A stretch of DNA of 26,981 nucleotides, from contig JBJFAF010000001.1 in NCBI GenBank assembly GCA_051887755.1, forward strand, positions 1 through 26,981, written 5' to 3'. A program made the position numbers and the translations under genes. The number at the start of each line of letters is the position of its first letter. The stretch's first letter is position 1. Positions 5,422-20,085 of the stretch are shown piece after piece. The stretch is from Candidatus Coproplasma sp. Lineage in GTDB: Bacteria; Bacillota; Clostridia; Christensenellales; Borkfalkiaceae. The notes under the pieces are model-generated. The model had not been told where the DNA came from. It was given only the letters and a program-made list of their open reading frames with translations, and searched no databases.

Positions 5422-5485
5422 TTTTATTTCTCCTATATCGTTAGTTTGCCCTTTCGGGTTAATTTTATTTAAGCAAGTTAAAAAC

Positions 5486-6775
5486 TTATTCAGCCTTATC
5501 CGCCTTCTCTTCTTCCTGCTCCTCTTCGGAGAGCTTAACGACCTTAAGCTCGTTAATTCTCCTAAATTCGGTCATACTTACGGTAATTTTTAAGTTGGCG
5601 TACGTCAGCTCGTCGCCCATAGAGGGCACTTTCCCGAGCATTTCAATGACCCAACCGCCGACGGTTGCGCTTTCGCAATCGACTTCCTTAATATCGAAAT
5701 ATTCGCAGAAATCGTTGAGCGAAGTCGAACCGAGCACCTTAAATTCGGTTTCGCTGACTTCGGTTATATCGGACTCCACCTCGTCGTGCTCGTCCCAAAT
5801 TTCGCCGACGAGCTCCTCCAAAATGTCCTCCATCGTTATTATGCCGACCGTCTCGCCGAACTCGCCCGAAACGACCGCCATATGCGACTTTTTCTTTTGC
5901 AACTGCTGTAACACTGCGCTGATTTTGGTCGTCGATACGACGAATATTGCGGGCTTTGCCGCCTTTTCTAACGAAAATGCGGGGTCCATTCGCTGTTTGA
6001 TAAAGTCCTTCTCGTGCAGAATACCGATAATATTATCTATGCTGTCCTTGTACACGGGCAGACGGGAATAGCGGGTATCGAAGAAGATTTTGTCAATCTC
6101 GTCGAAAGGCGCATTACAATCTACCGCAACGACGTCAACTCGGGGGATAAGGATATCCTTTGCCTCTAAGTCGTTGAATTCGATTGCGCTTTTAATAAGA
6201 GTGCTCTCCTCGGCGTTTATGCCGCCCTCCTGCTCCGCCTCGTCTACCATAATCATAAGCTCGTCGTCGGTGATTGCCGTGTCTTCCTTATGCTTAAAGA
6301 TTTTGGTGAGCATCTTTTTCCACAGCCAGAAAAAGGCGTTGAGGGGCGTAAGCACATACGCAAGAGCGCCGATTATGGGCGCAGACATTCTTGCAAACCC
6401 TTCGGGGTGTTCCTTTGCAAGCGTCTTAGGCGTGACCTCGCCGAAGATTAGCACCGTAACCGTCATAACCAAAGTCGAGAGTACGGTGGCAAGACTTTCG
6501 TTGGACTTTACCCATTCGACGAAGAGCAACGTCATAAGCGACGACGCTAAGATGTTGACTATATTGTTGCCTATTAAAATGGTCGAGAGCAACCTATCGT
6601 AGTTTTCGGCAAGCTTTAAAACTCGCTTTGCGCCCTTATCGCCGTCGTCCGCCTTTGCCCTTAACCTAATTTTATTGATTGCGGTAAACGCCGTTTCCGT
6701 CGCAGAAAAATAGCCCGAAAACAAGACGCATAAAACTACTACTAATACTAAAACTATTTGAGTTGTACTGTTCAT
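5486..6775 (-). CDS. Hemolysin-family / CNNM-CBS-CorC_HlyC divalent cation transporter (CorB/CorC-like)
   Basis: FSATETAF, LSTILIGNNIVNI and FGEVTPKTLA (CNNM/DUF21), tandem CBS domains (YSRLPVY; GIITMEDILEELVGEIWDE), C-terminal CorC_HlyC (ATVGGWVIEMLGKVP). Confidence 0.93.
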   Translation of the reverse strand: MNSTTQIVLVLVVVLCVLFSGYFSATETAFTAINKIRLRAKADDGDKGAKRVLKLAENYDRLLSTILIGNNIVNILASSLMTLLFVEWVKSNESLATVLSTLVMTVTVLIFGEVTPKTLAKEHPEGFARMSAPIIGALAYVLTPLNAFFWLWKKMLTKIFKHKEDTAITDDELMIMVDEAEQEGGINAEESTLIKSAIEFNDLEAKDILIPRVDVVAVDCNAPFDEIDKIFFDTRYSRLPVYKDSIDNIIGILHEKDFIKQRMDPAFSLEKAAKPAIFVVSTTKISAVLQQLQKKKSHMAVVSGEFGETVGIITMEDILEELVGEIWDEHDEVESDITEVSETEFKVLGSTSLNDFCEYFDIKEVDCESATVGGWVIEMLGKVPSMGDELTYANLKITVSMTEFRRINELKVVKLSEEEQEEEKADKAE

Positions 6776-6817
6776 AAATCCTCCAAAACGTTATAAAGAC
6801 AAATTTTTGACCTATCC

Positions 6818-6928
6818 CTACAACGTAAGAAGAATTCTTTTTAACTCAAAATGCGCCCTCGACGTCATTCGGGGCGTATCTGAAAAAAACTGAAAGCGAC
6901 AAGCTCGTCGCTTAGATGGGTCGTCCAT
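6818..6928 (-). CDS. Putative 36-aa leader peptide MDDPSKRRACRFQFFSDTPRMTSRAHFELKRILLTL
   Basis: Strong GAGGAG SD 4 nt before the ATG; lies in the long 5' leader of the CNNM gene and overlaps a terminator-like hairpin. Confidence 0.55.
   Translation of the reverse strand: MDDPSKRRACRFQFFSDTPRMTSRAHFELKRILLTL
6883..6913 (-). terminator. Attenuator-like terminator inside the leader ORF
   Basis: RNA AAGCGAC-GAGCUU-GUCGCUU followed by UCAGUUUUUUU. Confidence 0.6.
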
Positions 6929-6989
6929 AATCTCCTCTTGATTTATTGTGCGGAAGTGTATATTTTATAGTAATATTCCGCTTTTTTAT

Positions 6990-7018
6990 ATAATAACACA
7001 ACGTAAGACGATATGCAA
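6990..7018 (-). promoter_or_regulatory. sigmaA-type promoter for the leader/CNNM gene
   Basis: TTGCAT-N17-TATTAT with TGn extended -10. Confidence 0.55.
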
Positions 7019-7058
7019 TCAATTATCGCAATATTTTTTTTCATTGTGTATTTTAACG

Positions 7059-7107
7059 AAAAAAACCGTAAAATTTAAGCGGAAAGCCGTTTTTAAACCC
7101 TCCGCTT
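7059..7107 (-). terminator. Possible terminator ending the degV-GNAT-GNAT-LPG_synthase_TM operon
   Basis: AAGCGGA...TCCGCTT stem, then T-rich sequence on the minus strand; imperfect. Confidence 0.4.
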
Positions 7108-7133
7108 TGATTTTTATCTTAAAAAATTTCCTC

Positions 7134-8531
7134 TCAACAATTCTTTCGGGTTTTATTTTTATTCCTTCTGTTGATGATATTCTTCTTAATTATATCCCTT
7201 ACGGTGATGACGAGCCCTATTATAATATAGATATAATAGACGGCAAGTCTCCAGACGAGAACCGACCAAGCAAGCGTATTGCCTGCCGCCGCAGAGAACG
7301 CAAGCGCCGCCATACCCTCCATAACGCCCGAGTTGCCCGGCGTAGGTATGAACGATACGCCGAAGGTGGCGAATGCGTTAAGAGCCATTATAGTTATAAA
7401 CTGCCCCTGCACGTCGCAGGAAAACGCCTTCATAACGAAGTACGGCACGGAGAATGTTAAAAACGCCTCCGCATAGCTCACTAAAACGAGCATTATGAGC
7501 ATTACGGGCGAAGTTGCCATAACCTTGAAAGAGTGTTTAAAATCGTCTACGACCTTAGTTGCTTTTTTAAGCGTCTTTTCCTCGTCTTTGACGATTTTCA
7601 TCTTTTTTCCAAGTCTGACAATTCCCCTTGTAAGCTTAATCATCGCCTTGGGAAAAATCAAAAAGAACGCAATAAAGATGGGCAAAATTAGGTTCACGCC
7701 TACGCCTACCCAACCTGCAACCAAAAGCAGCGTCTTACCCGTAGTATCGTCTAAAACGTGATTTACCGTACCTACTATCATAAGCACCGCACCCAGAGAA
7801 ACCCAAGTTAAAATACTTGAGAAATAGCGGATGAGTACGATTGCCGTAGAGTTGCCGCCGCTTATGCCCTTTGAGTTGAGATAGTAAATCTGCATAGGCT
7901 GACCGCCCGTTGAAAATGGGGTAACCGCATCGTAGTACTTACCCAAAAAACTCGTCTTGACCGACGAGGGAAGCCTTACCTTTCCTGTGACCGTCTTGTC
8001 TATTATGCAGAACTTCGTGCAGTCCAAGAACATAATGCTAAGCACTATGACGACCAAAAGCACCATAAACCAAGGGCTTGCATTGGCAAAAACGTCGCCA
8101 ATCGACGAGCTTGCGTCGGGAATTTCGTTTACGACTTTAAACAGCGAATAAATACCCAAGGCAATCAGCATGACCAAGACGACGTTGAGAATTATTTTGG
8201 ACGCCTTGCTCTTCTGCGGCTTTGCCTGAGTTGCCGCCGCTTGATTTTGAGATGGACATTCTTGCTCGCCGTCCTCCGATTGAACGGTCTCCGATGCGGC
8301 GGTAATTTCCTCCGCCTGAACCGCCTCCGTTTGAGAGATATTTTCGACCTCTGCTTGAACGGTATTTTCAGTCTCTGACTGAGAAGCATTATCCTCTACC
8401 GCCTGAGAGGTATTTTCGACCTCTGACGAGGGCGTCGGGCTAGCTATCTCCGCCGCAGGAACGTCTTCCCCGCCCGCCGCAATTTCGTCGGTCGGTGTAT
8501 TAAGTTTTATCTTTTCTTCGTCTATCGACAA
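7134..8531 (-). CDS. Lysylphosphatidylglycerol synthase TM-domain (UPF0104, flippase-like) membrane protein with acidic N-terminal extension
   Basis: YYDAVTPFSTGGQPMQIYYL and IPTPGNSGVMEG motifs, W+WR motif (VLVWRLAVYY), about 8 TM segments, no aminoacyl-transferase domain; TTG start with AGAGGT SD. Confidence 0.88.
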   Translation of the reverse strand: MSIDEEKIKLNTPTDEIAAGGEDVPAAEIASPTPSSEVENTSQAVEDNASQSETENTVQAEVENISQTEAVQAEEITAASETVQSEDGEQECPSQNQAAATQAKPQKSKASKIILNVVLVMLIALGIYSLFKVVNEIPDASSSIGDVFANASPWFMVLLVVIVLSIMFLDCTKFCIIDKTVTGKVRLPSSVKTSFLGKYYDAVTPFSTGGQPMQIYYLNSKGISGGNSTAIVLIRYFSSILTWVSLGAVLMIVGTVNHVLDDTTGKTLLLVAGWVGVGVNLILPIFIAFFLIFPKAMIKLTRGIVRLGKKMKIVKDEEKTLKKATKVVDDFKHSFKVMATSPVMLIMLVLVSYAEAFLTFSVPYFVMKAFSCDVQGQFITIMALNAFATFGVSFIPTPGNSGVMEGMAALAFSAAAGNTLAWSVLVWRLAVYYIYIIIGLVITVRDIIKKNIINRRNKNKTRKNC

Positions 8532-8578
8532 TCTGTTACCTCTTACAGACGCATACGGCGTCCGCAGTTACTAATATA

Positions 8579-9718
8579 TTAATTTTTCTCTACCTTTAAG
8601 CCCCAGCACCTAAACGTTTTGGAATAGAGCTTTTCAAAATTCTTCCACAAATTCTGAACGTGCCTGTTTTCCTCCAACTCCGGTCCTGCCTCTAAATACT
8701 TGACGTTATGCTTTATTAAGCCTTCTACGCAGTGGGCTAATATTATTGAAGGAACACCTTTATTTGCATGTGACTTCGCCATTGCGATATGTAATAAATC
8801 CACGACTTCGGGGTGTTCGATTGTCTTTAAGAGGGGGATAATGCCGCAGGGAAAAATGTGCCCCTTACCCTTTTGCATAACCTCTTTCATTGAGGGTATC
8901 ATATATCCGTAAGCCACAACCTTATCGTTCTGTGTTACGACGGTAGCAAAGTCGGGAACTAAGATGGAGAGCATAGTCTTCATAAGTCTGCGTTTTTGTT
9001 TTTCGTTCGTAGGGCTCGTGCCGTACAAATCTTCAAACGCCTCGTCCATAACGTCTAAAGCCTGCATAACGTATTCTTCAAGCTTGCGTCTATCGTGCTT
9101 TGCAAGGTATTCTACGTCTAAGATTTCATAGCCGTATTTTTTCATTACGTCTTCAGAAATCTTCTTGATTCTGGGGTCAAGCTTGGTGGGGGAAACTATT
9201 CGGTAAGCGTTCCAATCTACTATCTTATAAGCCCCTAATTTTTGCATATGCTCTACATAATACGGGTGATTGTAAATCTCTATGTAAGTGCTGTCCTTAT
9301 CGAACCCGTCGATGAGCATGCCCTCTTCGTTTAAATCGGAAAAGCTCATAGGTCCGATAATCTCGTTCATACCCAGCTCTCTCGCCCAGTCGTAGAGCTT
9401 TGCAAACATAGCTTTTGTAACCTCGAAATCGTCGATGACGTCGAAACGGGTGAAACGAAGCTGTTTATAGCCGAACTTTTCGTTTACGCCCTTGTGCCAT
9501 ATACCTGCAATTCTCCCTGCGAGCTTGCCATCTTTATAAGCTAAGAACATTTTGCACTCCGCAAAGCGGAAGGCGTCGTTGACTTCGGGGTCGAACTCGG
9601 CGAATTCGTCGGCGTACATATTGGGGCAGGCGTGAGGATTGCCCTTGTATAAATCGAAAATAAATTTAAAAAACTTTTTCTTATCTCTCTTAGAAGATAT
9701 TTCCTTAACTTCTATCAT
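8579..9718 (-). CDS. YghO-like double-GNAT N-acyltransferase, paralog 2 (bacterial ceramide synthase-like)
   Basis: 379 aa; FLAYKDGKLAGRIA, RFTRFDVIDD, IIGPMSFSDLNEEGMLIDGFD, YNHPYYVEHM..LG, IFPxG, ELEEN motifs line up with the YghO-family pattern. Confidence 0.75.
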   Translation of the reverse strand: MIEVKEISSKRDKKKFFKFIFDLYKGNPHACPNMYADEFAEFDPEVNDAFRFAECKMFLAYKDGKLAGRIAGIWHKGVNEKFGYKQLRFTRFDVIDDFEVTKAMFAKLYDWARELGMNEIIGPMSFSDLNEEGMLIDGFDKDSTYIEIYNHPYYVEHMQKLGAYKIVDWNAYRIVSPTKLDPRIKKISEDVMKKYGYEILDVEYLAKHDRRKLEEYVMQALDVMDEAFEDLYGTSPTNEKQKRRLMKTMLSILVPDFATVVTQNDKVVAYGYMIPSMKEVMQKGKGHIFPCGIIPLLKTIEHPEVVDLLHIAMAKSHANKGVPSIILAHCVEGLIKHNVKYLEAGPELEENRHVQNLWKNFEKLYSKTFRCWGLKVEKN

Positions 9719-9757
9719 TTGCCTTTTTTGCTCTCTTTTTTCTTCGCCCTCAAATAA

Positions 9758-10891
9758 TTATTTGACTTCCAAACCCCAGCAACGGTGTTTTTTAGCAATC
9801 TCTCTTTCAAAATCTTTCCACAGGTTCTGTACGTTGTTGTTGTACTCAAGCTCGGGACCCGTTTCCAGATATTTTACGCCAAGCTTTTTAAGCCCGTGCA
9901 GGCACTCGCTCATAATAATCGCAACCGTACCCTTGTTTGCGTGGTCTTTAGCTACGCCGATACTCATCATCTCGGCAATCTCCACATGTTTCATCGCCTT
10001 TAAATACGGTATTACGCCGAAGGGGAAGATATGTCCCTTGCCCTTTTGCATAACTTCCTTTATGCAGGGCATCATAAAGCCGTAGGCAACTACCTTATCG
10101 TCCTTTAATACGACGCACGCAAGCTCGGGAACGAGAATGGTGAGTATGGTATCCATCTCCCTCTTTTTCTGCTTGTCGTTTATAGGGCTCGTGCCGTATA
10201 AATCTTCAAACGCCTCGTCTAAGACGCCCAAAGCCTGCATTATGTATTCTTTTAATTTTTCCTTGTCGTGCTTGACGAGGTACGCTATGTCTACCGTTTC
10301 GTAACCCCCTCTCTTTTTAACTGCGGCGGCAAGCCTGTCCAACCTTTCGTCGCAGCTCTCGGGAACTTTAATGCGGTAACAATTCCAATCTACCACCTTA
10401 TACGCACCGAGCTTTTCCATATGCTCGACATAATAAGGGGCGTTGTAAATTTCTATGTAAGTGCTATCCCTGTCGAACCCGTCTATGAGCATACCTTCTT
10501 CGTTCAAATCGGAAAAGCTCATAGGTCCGATAATTTCTTCCATACCAAGCTCTTTAGCCCACTCGGTGACTTTTGCAAACAGAGCCTTGGTTACTTCGAA
10601 ATCGTCTATAACGTCGAAACGGGTGAAACGCAGTTGCTTTTTTCCCGTCTTTTCGTTTACGCCTTTGTGCCAGATAGCGGCGATACGCCCTGCGATTTTT
10701 CCGTCTTTATACGCTAAAAACATTCTACATTCTGCAAAGCGGAAGGCGTCGTTGACTTCGGGGTCGAACTCGGCGAACTCGTCCATATAAAGATTGCAGT
10801 ATGCGTGGGGATTTTTACCGTACAGCGTATGCTGAAACTTAAAAAATTTCTTTTGCTCTTTTTTGGAGTGAATTTCCTTTACTTCTATCAT
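9758..10891 (-). CDS. YghO-like double-GNAT N-acyltransferase, paralog 1 (bacterial ceramide synthase-like)
   Basis: 377 aa; same motifs as 8579..9718 and about 70% identical to it by manual alignment; TAATG overlap with the degV stop. Confidence 0.75.
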   Translation of the reverse strand: MIEVKEIHSKKEQKKFFKFQHTLYGKNPHAYCNLYMDEFAEFDPEVNDAFRFAECRMFLAYKDGKIAGRIAAIWHKGVNEKTGKKQLRFTRFDVIDDFEVTKALFAKVTEWAKELGMEEIIGPMSFSDLNEEGMLIDGFDRDSTYIEIYNAPYYVEHMEKLGAYKVVDWNCYRIKVPESCDERLDRLAAAVKKRGGYETVDIAYLVKHDKEKLKEYIMQALGVLDEAFEDLYGTSPINDKQKKREMDTILTILVPELACVVLKDDKVVAYGFMMPCIKEVMQKGKGHIFPFGVIPYLKAMKHVEIAEMMSIGVAKDHANKGTVAIIMSECLHGLKKLGVKYLETGPELEYNNNVQNLWKDFEREIAKKHRCWGLEVK

Positions 10892-11772
10892 TATTCCGCC
10901 TCCAAAGGGATAGGACGCTTATCGCCTATAAAGATTATGCCAAGCGTGCCGGGTCCGCAGTGCGTGCCGATAACGGGACCGATTATTTGACGTACGATAT
11001 TTGCGTCGGGGCGTTTTTCCTTGATGAGAGCGGCAAGCTCGTCGCCTTCGTCCTTGCAATCTGCGTCTATGACGTATACGGGATAAGCGGTATCGGTAAG
11101 CTCGTCAATGACCTTTTGGGCAAGCGAACGGATAGCCTTTCTTCTGCCCGACGCTTTTTCAAACACACTCAGTCCGCCCTTTTCATTTAAGGTTAAAATA
11201 GGCTTAATGCTAAGTATGGTGCCCGCTACCGCTGATACGGCAGAGAGCCTGCCTCCCCTCTTTAAGTGCATTAAATCATCCACCGAAAAGTAAACGCAGA
11301 CCTTGTTGGTAAAGTCCTTTAAGAACTCAACTATTTCTTCGTCGGTTGCGCCCTGTTGCTTTTTCTCAGCCGCCGCAAGCATCTGAATTCCTGCGCCGAG
11401 CGAGATGGACTTCGTGTCGAAAACTGTGCATTTTCTTTCGGGGAACTGCTCCTTAAGCTCGCTTAATGCGGCGTCGAGCTGATTGAAAGTGCCGCTCATT
11501 GCGTGGGAAAAGCTTATATATAAGACATCTTCCCCCGCCTTGAAATAGGGCGTTAAAATATCCTTGTAATTTTCGGGATTCAACGCCATAGTTTTAGGCA
11601 CGTTGCCCGCCCTTACCGCCGAATAGAAATCTGCAAAATCGGTGTTTTCGCCGAGGTCGTAGCTATACTCCTTTCCGCAGTAGCAGTAGGGCATAGATAT
11701 GTAATCCATACCGAGCTCTTTAACCTTATCAAACCAAAGCTCTCCGTTGCTGTCACATAACAAAATACTCAT
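10891..11772 (-). CDS. degV: DegV family fatty acid-binding protein (FakB-like)
   Basis: SILLCDS, VPKT, YISFSHAMSGTF, VFDTKSISLGAG, LKRGGRLS, SIKPIL, IGPVIGTHCGPGTLGI. Confidence 0.93.
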   Translation of the reverse strand: MSILLCDSNGELWFDKVKELGMDYISMPYCYCGKEYSYDLGENTDFADFYSAVRAGNVPKTMALNPENYKDILTPYFKAGEDVLYISFSHAMSGTFNQLDAALSELKEQFPERKCTVFDTKSISLGAGIQMLAAAEKKQQGATDEEIVEFLKDFTNKVCVYFSVDDLMHLKRGGRLSAVSAVAGTILSIKPILTLNEKGGLSVFEKASGRRKAIRSLAQKVIDELTDTAYPVYVIDADCKDEGDELAALIKEKRPDANIVRQIIGPVIGTHCGPGTLGIIFIGDKRPIPLEAE

Positions 11773-12057: not shown

Positions 12058-14427
12058 TTATTTTATCAAGCCCGCCTCCACCTCTTCGGCAAAGCGAACG
12101 GTCTGCATTGCGTCCTTACAGTACCTGTCCGCACCTATTTGTGCGGCGTATTCCTCGTTTAAAACCGCACCGCCGACGCAGGTCAAAACGGAGGGACATT
12201 CCCTTTTGAGCAGCTCAATCGTCTCCTTCATAGAAACGACCGTGGTAGTCATCAACGCCGATAAGCCTGCAACCTCTGCGCCTACCTCCTTAACCTTTTC
12301 GACCACCTTTTCGGGCGGGACGTCCTTACCCAAGTCGTACACCTTAAAGCCGTAGTTGGATAGCAGAGTCGCAACTATATTTTTGCCGATATCGTGAATA
12401 TCGCCCTTGACCGTAGCGAGGACGATTTTGGTATTTTTTGCGTTCTCGTTGGAGGATAGTCTCTCCTTAACCTTATCAAAAGCCGCCCTTGCCGCTTCCG
12501 CACTCATTAAAAGCTGAGGTAAAAACACCGTCTTATTTTCAAAGCCTGCGCCCACCTCGTCCAAGGCGGGAATGATTTCGGTATTGACTACGTCCATAGG
12601 CGGCAAATCGGCAAGCAGTCTTTCAGCGGCGAGCGCCGCCTCCTCCTTAAGCCCTTTTACGACGCAGTACTTTAAGTCTTTATCGGTCTGCGCCTTAAGT
12701 GCGGCAGGCTGAACCTGACCGTTGGCAAACGCAATATATCCCTCGAAATTTTTATCCTTACCCGTGAGTGCGAGGAAGGATTTATAAGTCTTAGTCATCT
12801 CCTGCGAGTAGGGATTGTAGATTGCCGCCGACAGCCCCGAATTTAGAGCCATACAAAAGAATGTCGAATTTATAAAATCTCTCTGCGGCAACCCGAAGGA
12901 TACGTTGGAAACGCCCAAAGAGGTGTGACAGCCGAGCGTATAGCGGATAGTATTTAAAGCTTTAACAGCCTCCAGAGCCGCAGTAGGGTCAGCCGATACA
13001 GCCATTGCAAGCGTATCGAAAATCAGCCTTTCTTTTGCAATGCCGTATTTTTTTGCAACCTTAATAATCTTTTTTGCAATCTCCACCCTGCCCTCTGCGG
13101 CGGAGGGAATACCCGCCTCGTCAAGCGTTAAGCAGATTACACAGCCGCCGTACTTTTTAACGAGCGGGAAAACGGCTTGCATACTCTCCTCCTTGCCGTT
13201 TACCGAGTTTATGATGGCAACGCCGTTGTATATGCGCATTGCGTTTTCCATCGCCTTAAAGGAAGAGGTGTCTATCTGCAAAGGCAAATCGGTCACCGAT
13301 TGAATTTCCTCCACGCAACGGGGCAATACGTTTTCCTCGTCAATTTCGGGCAAGCCCACGTTTACGTCCAACGCATGCGCACCGTTTTCGGACTGAGCAA
13401 CCGCCTCGCCGAGGATATACGCCATATCATTTTCCCTCAGCGCCTCTTTTAATTTTTTCTTGCCCGTGGGGTTAATTCGTTCGCCTATAAGTACGGGTGT
13501 ATCACCGAAATAGAGTGCGTGAGTGTAGGACGAGCAGACGGTTAAACGCTTTTCATTTATTCTTTTAAACTCAATGCCCTTTAATGTCTGCGTTAGTTCA
13601 AGTATATATCGGGGTGTAGTGCCGCAACAGCCGCCCAAAACGGTCGCACCCTTTTCTGCTAAACGGCACATATCAAGTGCGAAATCTTCGGCGGAAAGTG
13701 AATAGATTGTCCTGCCGTCCCTCTCTTCGGGCAAACCTGCGTTGGGCTTGATTATTACGGGCGTCGAGGACACCTTTAACATTCTTTCCACAACTTGAGT
13801 AAGCTCTGCGGGGGCGAGCGAACAGTTTGCGCCGAGTGCGTCTACCCCCAACCCCTCCAAAAGCGCAACGGTAGCCTCTGGCGTGCCGCCCGACATAGTT
13901 AGGCAATCTCTGCCGAATACGGCGGTCGCAAATACGGGCAAGTCACAGCATTCTTTTGCGGCGAGCACTGCGGCTTTAAGCTCGTACAAATCGTTCATAG
14001 TTTCAACGGCAATTATATCCGCACCTGCGGCAACGCCCGCCTTAATCGTGCGCTTAAAGATTTCTACCGCCGCCTCGAATTCCAAGTCGCCGAGCGGCTT
14101 TAACAGCCTGCCCGTAGGACCGACATCAAGCGCAACGAAAGCCTCTTTAAAGTCCTTTGCAGCACTCTTTGCATTTTGTACTGCGGCGGCAACCACTTCC
14201 TCCGTCCCGTCGCCGAACTTCAAGCAGTTTGCGCCGAATGTGTTGGTGTAGATTACGTTTGCACCCGCCTTTAAATAGTCGGTATGCACCTTGATAATTT
14301 CCTCGGGTCGGGTTAGGTTCCACTCCTCGGGCAGAGTGCCCAAAGGCAGACCCGCCGCCTGTAGCTGAGTGCCCATACCGCCGTCTAAGATTAAAATTGA
14401 GTTTTTTAATTTATCTTTTACGCTCAT
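12058..14427 (-). CDS. metH: Cobalamin-dependent methionine synthase core (Hcy-binding, pterin-binding, cap and B12-binding domains; no reactivation domain)
   Basis: LDGGMGTQL, GANC, GGCCGTTP, IGERINPTGKK, GVSNVSFGLP, FLPQLLMSAEA, GDIHDIGKNIV (DxHxxG). Confidence 0.93.
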   Translation of the reverse strand: MSVKDKLKNSILILDGGMGTQLQAAGLPLGTLPEEWNLTRPEEIIKVHTDYLKAGANVIYTNTFGANCLKFGDGTEEVVAAAVQNAKSAAKDFKEAFVALDVGPTGRLLKPLGDLEFEAAVEIFKRTIKAGVAAGADIIAVETMNDLYELKAAVLAAKECCDLPVFATAVFGRDCLTMSGGTPEATVALLEGLGVDALGANCSLAPAELTQVVERMLKVSSTPVIIKPNAGLPEERDGRTIYSLSAEDFALDMCRLAEKGATVLGGCCGTTPRYILELTQTLKGIEFKRINEKRLTVCSSYTHALYFGDTPVLIGERINPTGKKKLKEALRENDMAYILGEAVAQSENGAHALDVNVGLPEIDEENVLPRCVEEIQSVTDLPLQIDTSSFKAMENAMRIYNGVAIINSVNGKEESMQAVFPLVKKYGGCVICLTLDEAGIPSAAEGRVEIAKKIIKVAKKYGIAKERLIFDTLAMAVSADPTAALEAVKALNTIRYTLGCHTSLGVSNVSFGLPQRDFINSTFFCMALNSGLSAAIYNPYSQEMTKTYKSFLALTGKDKNFEGYIAFANGQVQPAALKAQTDKDLKYCVVKGLKEEAALAAERLLADLPPMDVVNTEIIPALDEVGAGFENKTVFLPQLLMSAEAARAAFDKVKERLSSNENAKNTKIVLATVKGDIHDIGKNIVATLLSNYGFKVYDLGKDVPPEKVVEKVKEVGAEVAGLSALMTTTVVSMKETIELLKRECPSVLTCVGGAVLNEEYAAQIGADRYCKDAMQTVRFAEEVEAGLIK

Positions 14428-15017
14428 AAGTCTTTAATGCCCACCATTGCCGTAACCGATTTCGTCGGCGTCATAAAGCAGTCGTCGGATAGGGTTATAC
14501 CCAACCGCTTAGTAACGGACAGCGCCTGAAAAATATTGCGCTGTAAGGATATGTCGCAGTCGCCGAACCCGCAGGAAAAGCGAGACGTATTCGTGTTGTA
14601 CTTTTCTTTGAGTTTAGCGCAGATTTCGTCGCACCAACTTTCGATTAAAGCCGCACCCATCGCCTGCAAAACCGCCGCCTTCGACGGGGATATTTTAGAG
14701 TATCTTACGATAAGCCTGTCCACGCCTGCGCCTGCGGTTGCCGCAAACAGCACCACATGCGAACAACCCTTTAAATTCAGGGCGAGCGAATGGCTCCTTA
14801 TCTTTGCATAGCCCAAATTTAGCTCGTCGCCGTCGGCTGAAAAATCGTAAATATCGTAAACCGCCTTTAAGTCCTGAGCCTGCAAAATAAGCTTTTCGCA
14901 CTCGTCAAAGAGCGCACTTACCTCTTCCGTAGGTGCGGCTCCTTTGGTATAGCCGAGATAGTACAGCGTTTCGTTGCGGTCTATAGAGTTTAAAGTGGTC
15001 GATAAAAGCGTCGTCAT
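14424..15017 (-). CDS. Stand-alone B12-dependent methionine synthase activation (AdoMet-binding) domain protein
   Basis: VVLFAATAG, RFSCGFGD (family RFSPGYGD), MTPTKSVTAMVGI; ATGA overlaps with both neighbours. Confidence 0.88.
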   Translation of the reverse strand: MTTLLSTTLNSIDRNETLYYLGYTKGAAPTEEVSALFDECEKLILQAQDLKAVYDIYDFSADGDELNLGYAKIRSHSLALNLKGCSHVVLFAATAGAGVDRLIVRYSKISPSKAAVLQAMGAALIESWCDEICAKLKEKYNTNTSRFSCGFGDCDISLQRNIFQALSVTKRLGITLSDDCFMTPTKSVTAMVGIKDL

Positions 15018-15868
15018 ATAATGCTTGAAAGGTTTGCCTTGATTGCCTCGGCAACTTCGGGCTTGTTCATCGAATAGACATGCACAGCCTTAACGCCGTT
15101 TGCGTAGAGGTCTATAATCTGTTCGCTTGCGTAGATAATGCCCGCCTCGCACATAGCTTTAGGATTGTCGCCGAACCTGTCCACTATGCGCTTAAAGCGA
15201 GTGGGAAGATAACTGCCCGAAAGGGAAACTATTCTCTTAATCTGCACGGCGTTGGTCACGGGCATTATACCCGCAATGACGGGAACGTAGATGCCTGCCT
15301 CCCTGACCTTTGATAAAAAGCTGTAGAAAACGTCGTTGTCGAAGAACATCTGCGTGGTCAAAAAGTCGCAACCTGCGTCCACCTTCTTTTTAAGGTTTTC
15401 TATATCTGAAAAGAGTGTTGCGCTCTCGGGGTGACCCTCGGGGTAGCACGCACCGCCGATACAGAAGTTGCCCGTGTCCTTGCACTCCTTGACGAGCTCG
15501 CTTGCATAGTGATAGTCAAGGTTGCCTTTAAAATCTTTGGGTATATCGCCCCTTAGGGCAAGCACGTTGTCTATGCCCTCCTCTTTGAGTGCGGCAAGCT
15601 TATTTGCCACGTCCTTTCGGTCGGACGAAATGCACGAAAGGTGTGCAAGCGGCTCTACCCCTAACTCTTTTATGCGCTTAGCAACGGCTACGGTATAGTC
15701 GCTCGTTCCGCCGCCCGCACCGTAAGTCACGCTCATAAAATCGGGGTTGAGTGCGGCGATTTTATCCACCGCCTGTGTAACCGATTCGTACTTATCGCTC
15801 GTCTTCGGGGGGAACACCTCGAAGGAAAGACACGCCTTTTTACTGTTTATTATGTCTATAATTTTCAT
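15014..15868 (-). CDS. metF: 5,10-methylenetetrahydrofolate reductase
   Basis: SFEVFPPK, SVTYGAGGG, LALRGD, GGACYPEGHP, KKKVDAGCDFLTTQMFFDN, GIMP. Confidence 0.96.
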   Translation of the reverse strand: MKIIDIINSKKACLSFEVFPPKTSDKYESVTQAVDKIAALNPDFMSVTYGAGGGTSDYTVAVAKRIKELGVEPLAHLSCISSDRKDVANKLAALKEEGIDNVLALRGDIPKDFKGNLDYHYASELVKECKDTGNFCIGGACYPEGHPESATLFSDIENLKKKVDAGCDFLTTQMFFDNDVFYSFLSKVREAGIYVPVIAGIMPVTNAVQIKRIVSLSGSYLPTRFKRIVDRFGDNPKAMCEAGIIYASEQIIDLYANGVKAVHVYSMNKPEVAEAIKANLSSII

Positions 15869-17897: not shown

Positions 17898-18338
17898 CTA
17901 TTTAAGCTGTAAGAATACGATAATCGCAAACACGATAATCGCAACTATCATTGCAAGCCAAAGCGCAAGCGCAACCCAGCGCACGGGCTTTTTGTTGAGC
18001 TTGAATTGATAAACCATATATAAGAGAGAGCCGCCCATACCTTGAAACAAGCATATTAATGCGCCTACACCGCATACTATTATGCCGATTATGGTAAGTA
18101 AGGGCATACTGTAAGTGCCGTCGCCCACCCTCGTATTTAAAAGGTTGTTCACGCAGAAGTATAAGCCCAAAAGAAGAAGTATTACTAAAATTCCGCTGTA
18201 TATTGTTTCCACGATAGAACGAACGCCGAGCTTAACGCTTATATCTCTCTTTTCTTCGTCGTTTTTAATTCGGGAATACTTCCCTTCTATCCTTATCCAA
18301 AAGGAGAACATATTACTAATTGCCTGTAATAATTTCAT
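17898..18338 (-). CDS. Hypothetical membrane protein (about 3 TM segments)
   Basis: 146 aa ORF with GAGGGG SD and its own promoter, 11 nt upstream of ppa; no recognised motif. Confidence 0.75.
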   Translation of the reverse strand: MKLLQAISNMFSFWIRIEGKYSRIKNDEEKRDISVKLGVRSIVETIYSGILVILLLLGLYFCVNNLLNTRVGDGTYSMPLLTIIGIIVCGVGALICLFQGMGGSLLYMVYQFKLNKKPVRWVALALWLAMIVAIIVFAIIVFLQLK

Positions 18339-18381
18339 AAGTTTTCCCCCTCGTACCGTTAAACGGTTATTTGGTATATAT

Positions 18382-18410
18382 ATTATAACACGAAATTTAT
18401 CGTTTGTCTA
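18382..18410 (-). promoter_or_regulatory. sigmaA promoter for the membrane protein/ppa unit
   Basis: TAGACA-N17-TATAAT. Confidence 0.7.
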
Positions 18411-18437
18411 TAGGTACTTTAAAATGAGCTTTTAGGC

Positions 18438-18482
18438 AGTTTTAACGGTGGGCGTTTATGATAAACGCCCACCGTTAAAACT
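18438..18482. repeat. Perfect 22-bp inverted repeat with 1-nt centre
   Basis: AGTTTTAACGGTGGGCGTTTAT-G-ATAAACGCCCACCGTTAAAACT. Confidence 0.95.
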
Positions 18483-18529
18483 TTTCGTTACGGTTATTAA
18501 ACAATTAAGCTATTCGCCTGAACCGAACG

Positions 18530-18997
18530 CTATCGGGCAGGGTTTTTCTTAATCATTTCAAAGTTTTTAAGTTTAACGCCGAAACGCTCGACCTCCTGTT
18601 CTTTGATTACTATATAGCTGCGATTTACAAAAAACGGCTTTGCGGTTATAGAAGAACAAGTTTTAATTTCCGCACGGTCTTTCTCTAACTCGTTGCATAA
18701 CGCCGTAGCAATTCCCTGATTTTGATAATCTTTATGCGTAAAGAGCAAGTCTAAATAACCAGAATCATCGATACTCCCGAAGCCGACGATTACGCCGTTA
18801 ATTTCCGCTATCAAAGTGCGTTGCTTTAATAAATCGTTTTGCCTCGTTCGCAGACAATTCGAACTCTTAATCCACGCATTAAGCTGTACTGCTGAGTAAT
18901 CTTTTGAGTTGACGCAATTCACCGTCGTATAAAATAATTGCGAAACAAAGTCAAAATCTTCGCTTTTATATTGCCGAATAGTCATAATATCTATCAA
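18530..18997 (-). CDS. GNAT family N-acetyltransferase (YafP-like)
   Basis: IRQYKSED, KDYSAVQLNAW, IVGFGSI, GYLDLLFTHKDYQNQGIATALC, SITAKPFF. The start may be the ATG at 18985. Confidence 0.88.
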   Translation of the reverse strand: MIDIMTIRQYKSEDFDFVSQLFYTTVNCVNSKDYSAVQLNAWIKSSNCLRTRQNDLLKQRTLIAEINGVIVGFGSIDDSGYLDLLFTHKDYQNQGIATALCNELEKDRAEIKTCSSITAKPFFVNRSYIVIKEQEVERFGVKLKNFEMIKKNPAR

Positions 18998-19086
18998 ATA
19001 ACCTTACAATGAAGAGTGAATTATAATACAGGTAACAATGACTGTCTTGAGTGCATATATTAATGTAAACACAAAATTACTATTAT

Positions 19087-20085
19087 CTAGATGTCTAATT
19101 CTTGTAACCTACAGAGCATTTTGTATATAATTTGACTTTTTGCAAACTCACCCAAATCACAATCATTTCCAAAATACATAGAACGCATTATTGCCGTTAA
19201 AAATGCAAGAATTGTTACATCGTCCTGATTTTTGAAATCAATGCATTGTATATCGCCATATTTTAAATCTTGCTTATCTAAAACTTCCTTATAATTTATA
19301 ACGGTAAATTGAGAAAGAACTGATAAAAAATTTTTGCATTCTGTTGAATAAACCAAGCACGGAATTAGCGTCCCTACTTGCCCGTCTACCATCTCTTCTT
19401 TGGGTGATGATAAAGTATAAAATTCTTGATTTGTGTCCGCAAAATAATCAATAAACTCGGTTAATTTTTCAAAACGCTTAAAGTTATTATTTCTCCATTT
19501 ATTCCACAAATAGAATTCCTGTAAAATAGGCTTACCGAATATACGCCTGCATTCATTTTGAAACTCTAAATAAATATCGTAATTATCCAACTTACTCCAA
19601 GGTCTACATAAAGCGACAAATTTTTGTAAAGAAAAATAGCAACTATGTTTATCAATACCGTTTAAGATTATGTTATCTATAGGAATATGCAAAAACGGCA
19701 AAACAGAGTTCATTCTATCATCATATAAATACATATATTTGCAGAACATATTTACCCATTTTTGCGCTTGTCCGTATGTAAATTTATATACATCTTTAAA
19801 AATATACTTCATTTGCAAACAAAGCAAAAAATGCCATTTATCAAACCCCTGTTTATCCATATCAGATAAAAACAATTTTTCATATTCTCTTCTTATTAAA
19901 ACTGAAATCTGAGTTTTAATACTTTCTTTTTTCGGGCATTTACTAAAGCTGCGTAAAGTACGTTGTAAATCACGGTATGAAAGATTAATTGCGTTTTGCA
20001 CCCTGTCGCCACAATCACTTTTTTTAACTGCATCTAAATTATAAAATTCCACAACATCAGCATTATTAATTATATCTTTGTTCAT
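19087..20085 (-). CDS. Hypothetical two-domain protein: helical domain with TYGQAQKWVN..HIPID..WSKL motif plus C-terminal DUF6508-like domain
   Basis: Long ORF in AT-rich DNA; the ATG at 20085 follows GCGGGG (alternative TTG at 20103). Domain calls come from recalled motifs. Confidence 0.7.
   Translation of the reverse strand: MNKDIINNADVVEFYNLDAVKKSDCGDRVQNAINLSYRDLQRTLRSFSKCPKKESIKTQISVLIRREYEKLFLSDMDKQGFDKWHFLLCLQMKYIFKDVYKFTYGQAQKWVNMFCKYMYLYDDRMNSVLPFLHIPIDNIILNGIDKHSCYFSLQKFVALCRPWSKLDNYDIYLEFQNECRRIFGKPILQEFYLWNKWRNNNFKRFEKLTEFIDYFADTNQEFYTLSSPKEEMVDGQVGTLIPCLVYSTECKNFLSVLSQFTVINYKEVLDKQDLKYGDIQCIDFKNQDDVTILAFLTAIMRSMYFGNDCDLGEFAKSQIIYKMLCRLQELDI

Follow-up and report, generated by a model that had tools for sequence, protein, structure and literature searches.

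A DegV-linked tandem pair of YghO/bCerS-family proteins in Candidatus Coproplasma and its possible role in lipid N-acylation

Four co-oriented genes and their flanking signals

We analysed a 26,981-nucleotide stretch of the genome of Candidatus Coproplasma sp. (class Clostridia, order Christensenellales, family Borkfalkiaceae; contig JBJFAF010000001.1, positions 1 to 26,981 of the forward strand, assembly GCA_051887755.1; hereafter the window), in particular four adjacent minus-strand genes that encode a fatty-acid-binding protein, two putative N-acyltransferases and a flippase-like membrane protein. The first gene, degV (10891–11772), encodes a DegV/FakB-type fatty-acid-binding protein of 293 aa (PF02645, TIGR00762). 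It is followed by GNAT-A (9758–10891), whose 377-aa product is a putative N-acyltransferase of the tandem-GNAT family named after Escherichia coli YghO and the bacterial ceramide synthase bCerS; by its paralogue GNAT-B (8579–9718, 379 aa); and by a gene for an MprF-type flippase-like membrane protein (7134–8531), which is 465 aa long when read from a TTG start (PF03706, TIGR00374).

The original prediction for this locus, made from the DNA sequence, had placed the four genes behind one strong promoter as a closely spaced unit ending at a probable terminator. The coordinates and spacing bear out the layout: the degV stop and the GNAT-A start overlap (TAATG), GNAT-A and GNAT-B are separated by 39 nt, GNAT-B and the flippase-like gene by 47 nt, and an AAGAGG Shine–Dalgarno sequence lies 7 nt upstream of the TTG start of the flippase-like gene. 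A sigma-70-like promoter (11908–11880, minus strand; TTGACA-17-TATTAT with an extended −10 TG) is likewise present ~108 nt upstream of degV, recognised by consensus match only (11/12 positions); immediately ahead of it, the upstream metH-like gene is closed by a terminator-like hairpin (12038–12011, minus strand). The terminator held in part: a hairpin with a T-run is present (6913–6894, minus strand), but it lies ~220 nt beyond the stop codon of the flippase-like gene and within the leader of the next gene, a CNNM/CorC gene (5486–6775). This hairpin could mark the end of the transcript, or it may be an attenuator of the CNNM/CorC gene instead of an operon terminator. An Rfam search of the region matched zero families. 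Judged from spacing only, the four genes are probably co-transcribed.

Family, fold and gene neighbourhood of the GNAT pair

Profile searches gave little for the two GNATs, with Acetyltransf_1 as the only Pfam match (weak, in the C lobe) and nothing meaningful in NCBIfam, and sequence searches of the PDB returned single-GNAT generic matches only. BLASTP aligned both proteins with E. coli YghO (Q46840), GNAT-A over its full length at 24% identity (E 2e-30) and GNAT-B with an E-value of 8e-29. An exhaustive search placed them in a family of 3813 clusters at 50% identity (E up to 0.001), and an alignment of 47 diverse members revealed invariant or near-invariant G68, R69, G122, P123, G138, P290, G292, E349 and N351, together with invariant G286 and G321. 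The motifs by which the family had been recognised in the original prediction (GRIA, F..ID, GP.S...N.E.G.L..GFD, FP.G and LE.N) coincide with these columns and align with YghO, which has all of them.

An AlphaFold model of GNAT-A, built on the 47-sequence alignment, showed a tandem GNAT with high scores (pLDDT 94.7, pTM 0.90). Foldseek comparison with Swiss-Prot models ranked YghO first (TM 0.86) and the protein annotated as "Bacterial ceramide synthase" of Caulobacter vibrioides NA1000 second (A0A0H3C8X0; TM 0.87, rmsd 2.8 over 384 aligned positions, 22% identity, E 1.7e-35), followed by mycothiol acetyltransferases at a TM of ~0.6. Against the PDB, the best matches were generic acetyl-CoA-using tandem GNATs only (a clavulanate-pathway protein, GlmA and MshD; TM 0.56–0.67), and aminoacyl-tRNA-dependent tandem GNATs, namely the MprF synthase domain and FemX, scored 0.33–0.49. 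These results confirm that GNAT-A and GNAT-B are members of the YghO/bCerS tandem-GNAT family, and establish at the level of fold the placement of bCerS in the YghO family, which had been put forward in the original prediction. Among YghO-family proteins, bCerS is the sole characterised member. A suspicion that bCerS is a FemAB_like protein (PF04339) was dropped: PF04339 is absent from the genome, and the Swiss-Prot fold match shows bCerS to be YghO-like.

GNAT-A and GNAT-B share 70% identity in a gap-free alignment, with 83% in the N lobe (residues 1–175) and 59% in the C (catalytic) lobe. The pattern is a mosaic, residues 176–200 being only 32% and residues 301–325 only 44% identical, and the genes share a 44-nt identical run near their 5′ ends, which suggests either that the N lobe underwent gene conversion or that the catalytic lobe diverged. 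Since the differences lie mainly in the catalytic C lobe, the two paralogues probably prefer different acyl chains or acceptors. A tree of the GNATs largely tracks taxonomic families, and the genus clade that contains both window proteins sits on a long branch (0.94), apart from the "typical" copies still found in two other genomes of the order (G077 and G104). Homologues from more distant phyla were of little help; the contexts of a Bacteroidales homologue (P0250, 30% identical, for which no link to the named CerS of B. fragilis emerged) and of an Acidobacteriota homologue were uninformative. The family also has longer members of 548 aa, among them P0157, whose residues 4–373 align to the query, and the AlphaFold database cluster R5IAH0, in which a cluster representative is named MsrA; this suggests a fusion with methionine sulfoxide reductase.

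The window DegV scored well above its family cut-offs (PF02645: E 3e-61, 207.6 bits, cut-off 27; TIGR00762: 228.8 bits, cut-off 99.7) and below that of the FakB1 equivalog (113.5 vs 350 bits). It is 87%, 71%, 70%, 40% and 33% identical to GNAT-linked DegVs in other genomes, whereas the genome's eight other DegV paralogues reach at most 32–35% identity to it; the GNAT-linked DegVs are mutually best matches and form an orthologue group of their own. Co-directional DegV–GNAT adjacency recurs in a same-genus species (G007, family f1), in a genome of a different family (G062, f26), in a genome outside the order (G287) and in metagenome contigs (L004-6 and L086-88), including contigs at 72% identity, and in all of these cases the DegV comes from the same orthologue group. 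We fetched 70 independent loci around GNAT homologues, 40 in the order and 30 elsewhere in the class. DegV was directly adjacent in three of them, ~10 times a rough chance rate that we estimated from 7–9 DegV genes per ~1,500–2,000 genes. Most YghO-family GNATs are lone genes in varying, often housekeeping, contexts, and no conserved neighbour beyond DegV was found across the 70 loci; LCP, MreCD, Rnf, AraC and others recur within single families only. These results indicate that DegV–GNAT is a real two-gene module, the conserved core of the locus, in which the GNAT has been duplicated in this genus. The DegV–GNAT link, proposed as meaningful from this single locus, is thus no product of chance, the same DegV orthologue group travelling with the GNAT in several families.

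The flippase-like protein matched PF03706 (E 2e-34) and TIGR00374 (85.7 bits, cut-off 43.2), and fell far below the cut-off of the GlcN-PG flippase equivalog NF053789 (47.9 vs 320 bits). It resembles MprF-type flippases (Lys-PG MprF and NF053789) in its LPG_synthase_TM domain, which scores above cut-off, and differs from MprF in having a ~105-aa acidic low-complexity N-terminus ahead of that domain and no fused synthase domain, a profile search having failed to find the C-terminal DUF2156/LPG_synthase_C domain. It is a stand-alone flippase-like protein, not MprF, and the genome has no other true copy of its gene. The N-terminus (8217–8531, minus strand) is rich in Ser, Thr, Gln and Glu and carries the near-repeats VENTSQA, TENTVQAE and VENISQTE before the first transmembrane helix; relatives of the protein have been called with shorter N-termini (435 aa).

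The four-gene order was seen only in very close relatives (at least 88% identity). A 93% relative has the order metH-degV-GNAT-GNAT-flippase-CNNM, and an 88% relative has degV-GNAT-GNAT-flippase followed without a gap by a GT4 glycosyltransferase gene. Elsewhere the flippase-like gene accompanies glycosyltransferase (GT) genes, standing after a different DegV paralogue in a flippase-GT4-GT2 arrangement in G046 and facing an MGDG-synthase-like GT28 in G077, as in systems that combine a flippase with a lipid synthase; in G007, which has degV-GNAT-GNAT, it is absent genome-wide. No GT4 partner accompanies the window copy, with no remnant downstream of the flippase-like gene in the window and no orthologue found in the genome. 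Because the flippase-like gene lies beside a GNAT in none of the 70 fetched loci and sister species pair it with glycosyltransferases, it appears to be allied with these enzymes and to be a late neighbour of the GNATs. Its association is primarily with glycolipid glycosyltransferases, a GNAT neighbour occurring only in this species group, and the four-gene locus is a composite of the conserved DegV–GNAT module and a lineage-specific flippase neighbour. In G077, a GNAT of the same clade lies directly downstream of a PLD/cardiolipin-synthase-like gene. Such PLD/Cls-like genes were considered as a link between the GNAT and serine palmitoyltransferase (Spt) and rejected, the copies beside the GNAT in G077 and beside Spt at another locus (L092) being paralogues of merely 34% identity.

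A probable fatty-acid scavenger with Spt-like and KdsR-like genes

We then considered the supply of acyl groups. The genome, which is 81.6% complete so that its absences are provisional, had no match to the ketoacyl synthase profile PF00109, the condensing enzyme of type II fatty-acid synthesis (FASII), or to the AMP-binding ligase profile PF00501. PF00109 likewise had zero matches in three genomes of 99–100% completeness (G007, G077 and G104), and AMP-binding ligases are few or absent across all four. The genome does encode nine DegV proteins, two FakA proteins (TIGR03599, both above cut-off), PlsX and acyl carrier protein (ACP). The gene content suggests that the lineage is a fatty-acid auxotroph or scavenger, and fits activated acyl pools made up of acyl-phosphate and acyl-ACP; such an economy would offer a rationale for a pathway-specific DegV. 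The idea that the locus draws on scavenged fatty acids thus agrees with the genome. The likeness to the FakA/FakB system of Firmicutes extends to the DegV family, FakA, PlsX and ACP; the difference is that the window DegV belongs to a separate group tied to an N-acyltransferase and not to general phospholipid synthesis.

The original prediction had noted no serine palmitoyltransferase gene in the window and supposed that the GNATs might act on sphingoid bases from host or diet. A search of the genome removes the premise that it has no sphingoid-base source of its own. Contig C132 (locus L065) carries an Spt-like alpha-oxoamine synthase gene (5457–6656, plus strand, 399 aa) and, 5 nt after it, a gene for a short-chain dehydrogenase/reductase (SDR) resembling the 3-ketodihydrosphingosine reductase KdsR (6662–7471, plus strand, 269 aa). 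The best NCBIfam model for the former is serine palmitoyltransferase (NF047600; E 7e-161, 535 bits), with the best non-Spt model 140 bits lower at 395 bits; for the latter it is 3-ketodihydrosphingosine reductase (NF049977; E 2e-76, 257 bits). C132 is a genuine part of the genome and not a binning artefact, because its right flank (pta, ackA) has the 70–77% nucleotide identity to same-genus genomes that is typical of the genus, the pair is chromosomal in close relatives and in one of them, at 95%, lies among pta-ackA-yceD-rpmF on a contig of 144 kb, the Spt-like protein has a ladder of 98–86% relatives in the same synteny, and several NCBI Candidatus Coproplasma metagenome-assembled genomes carry the Spt-like gene, in one of which the accessions of this gene and of the 95% GNAT are ~1,000 numbers apart.

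Of 120 species sampled in the order, 35 have an Spt-like orthologue (at least 52% identity). An SDR of the KdsR-like cluster lies near Spt in 12/21 loci (20 fetched loci and C132), mostly directly adjacent. In the literature that we searched, no paper on Spt or sphingolipid synthesis in Clostridia was found. Across the 120 species, 28 have both the GNAT and Spt, 7 Spt only, 25 the GNAT only and 60 neither, an odds ratio of ~9.6 in which relatives are not independent and phylogeny is uncorrected. The GNAT is therefore a good candidate for the missing N-acyltransferase of the Spt-bearing genomes, this one included.

The order also holds a second kind of alpha-oxoamine synthase, 33–38% identical to the Spt-like protein and located inside open frames of 700–1130 aa (for example G043:C4:122558-123691, G119:C20, G002:C1, G013:C18 and G086:C46:12260-13363); these proteins are probably multidomain fusions. 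In G086, the second-kind enzyme lies 3.4 kb from a GNAT homologue.

Candidate acceptors and alternative functions

We tentatively favour a role for the GNATs as a pair of DegV-fed long-chain N-acyltransferases, for which a sphingoid base is the foremost candidate acceptor in this genome. The organism, lacking a detected FASII condensing enzyme or acyl-CoA ligase, would scavenge fatty acids; an exogenous fatty acid would be bound by DegV and then phosphorylated by FakA, and the acyl group would be drawn from acyl-phosphate or from acyl-ACP made from it by PlsX. On the cytoplasmic side of the membrane, the two GNATs may then attach the long acyl chain to the amino group of a lipid precursor, the leading candidate being the sphingoid base from the Spt-like/KdsR-like pair on C132, which would yield dihydroceramide. 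The flippase-like protein, as a later neighbour, would most likely translocate a finished glycolipid, and possibly an amide lipid.

Caulobacter bCerS (CCNA_01212 / CC_1154) matches this proposal in several respects: like GNAT-A it has a full-length tandem-GNAT fold, it is of similar size (384 aa vs 377–379 aa), and the window genome has an Spt-like gene as well. Unlike bCerS, the window GNATs form a tandem pair coupled to a DegV carrier, are not clustered with spt and are kept in many Spt-less genomes. The setting differs too, in that the window GNATs belong to a Gram-positive anaerobe in which an acyl-CoA ligase was not detected, and its reductase is an SDR of the Bacteroides KdsR type whereas that of Caulobacter is of the CerR type. 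bCerS has reportedly been assayed with acyl-CoA; in the present genome, where the search for an acyl-CoA ligase came up empty, it is a sharp question whether acyl-CoA, acyl-ACP or acyl-phosphate serves as the donor.

A number of observations weigh against ceramide synthesis as the function of the GNATs. Spt-like genes are missing from 25 of the 53 GNAT-bearing species, including all three sampled same-genus species (99% complete) and the same-family genome; G007, with its identical DegV-GNAT-GNAT arrangement, is also Spt-less. Conversely, a GNAT of this family is missing from 7 of the 35 species with Spt, among them the 100%-complete small genomes G066 and G120, and in families f24, f26, f20 and f21 Spt flips and the GNAT persists. 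Spt presence is only weakly clustered on the GNAT tree (11 changes vs 14.3 with shuffled labels), and a GNAT lay within ~7 kb of Spt in 0/20 Spt loci examined; the closest spacings, 11.5 kb (G019), 23 kb (G005) and 26.5 kb (G114), amount to a mild excess at best. Clustering of ceramide synthase with spt and cerR is common but not universal, being absent in Bacteroidota (PMC11334938). Identity to bCerS is only 22%, and YghO is equally close; it comes from E. coli, which is not known to be a sphingolipid producer. YghO has no known substrate and no documented lipid-gene context, and E. coli is not known to have Spt or DegV; the DegV profile, run there as a control, found no match. Moreover, the Spt-like and KdsR-like proteins both score under their NCBIfam equivalog cut-offs (535/640 and 257/400 bits), and acyl donor, chain length and acceptor are all predictions. 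Many genomes without Spt retain the GNAT, so that it cannot serve everywhere as a dedicated ceramide synthase, and the ceramide-synthase function suggested for the pair is not established. The wider interpretation of the original prediction, N-acylation of an amine lipid and flipping of the product, is partly supported: the GNAT family, the DegV link and the scavenging economy fit it, but the four-gene order and the supposed lack of a base source do not.

It is almost as likely that DegV-fed long-chain N-acylation at the membrane is directed to a different amine, strains with Spt making ceramide as no more than a by-product; candidate acceptors would be phosphatidylethanolamine or serine (giving N-acyl-PE), a free amino acid (giving a lipoamino acid), a lyso-lipid, or an amino-glycolipid that the GT/flippase system next to the GNATs would make. 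Retention of the GNAT in the Spt-less species and of the whole module in G007 points this way, as do the G077 GNAT placed after a phospholipid-synthase-like gene, the continuation of the 88% relative's cluster into flippase and GT4, and the long branch of the genus clade after its split from the order's typical copies, which suggests a shifted function. The family itself is very large, with bCerS alone characterised; that one protein, however, is a ceramide synthase, and the Spt-like/KdsR-like pair is present in this very genome. A different amine would also leave the order-wide co-occurrence of GNAT and Spt unexplained, and no specific alternative acceptor pathway is conserved beside the GNAT in the 70 loci.

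Two further functions fit the data less well. The GNATs would be short-chain, acetyl-like transferases acting on a soluble small molecule or protein if the lone Acetyltransf_1 match, the acetyl-CoA-using enzymes among the nearest solved structures and the mostly solitary, housekeeping placement of the GNAT genes were taken at face value, with the neighbourhood reflecting genome compaction. We consider this improbable: those structures reach a TM of only ~0.56–0.67 vs 0.87 for bCerS, and in different families and orders the GNAT is accompanied by one particular DegV orthologue group, with stop–start overlaps and at ~10 times the estimated chance rate of adjacency. Highly improbable is a split MprF-like system, in which the tandem GNATs would aminoacylate a membrane lipid from aminoacyl-tRNA and the adjacent flippase would translocate it. 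The MprF synthase domain, FemX and aminoacyl-tRNA-dependent peptide synthases are indeed tandem GNATs among the PDB matches, and an LPG_synthase_TM domain is encoded next door; yet their TM values of 0.33–0.49 lie below those of the acyl-CoA-type tandem GNATs and far below those of bCerS and YghO, a DUF2156/LPG_synthase_C signal is lacking, and the GNAT–flippase adjacency, found in none of the 70 other loci, is broken in G007, which has the GNAT pair and zero flippase genes.

Sphingolipids of gut Bacteroidota modulate host immunity and metabolism, and in the literature that we searched Clostridia are not counted as sphingolipid producers. A plausible Spt, KdsR and bCerS-like set in a common gut order of Clostridia would widen the pool of candidate gut sphingolipid sources, and scavenged fatty acids may be turned into ceramide-like amide lipids by Gram-positive anaerobes of the gut. 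Extended to the order, the function that we favour would mean that many members (35/120 with an Spt-like gene, mostly beside a KdsR-like SDR), this species included, make sphingolipids de novo from scavenged fatty acids with the GNATs as ceramide synthases, fed in some lineages by DegV with acyl-phosphate or acyl-ACP rather than acyl-CoA. This generalisation, which would amount to a Gram-positive, FASII-independent ceramide route with a candidate flippase adjoining, we regard as doubtful. No report of a DegV coupled to an N-acyltransferase was found in the searched literature. The DegV–GNAT module suggests a new use of FakB-type carriers, in which they feed an N-acyltransferase rather than phospholipid synthesis, and offers a first way into the function of the YghO family, which is large and uncharacterised.

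Upstream of the locus, positions 12058–15868 of the window (minus strand) hold a split methionine-synthase set, named by synteny with L086. Its MetH-like protein of 789 aa lacks the C-terminal activation domain, and ahead of the gene for it stand individual genes for a Met_synt_B12-like protein (197 aa) and MTHFR (284 aa). An AT-rich islet lies at ~18000–20000, with a GC content of 0.29–0.38 vs ~0.45 elsewhere in the window.

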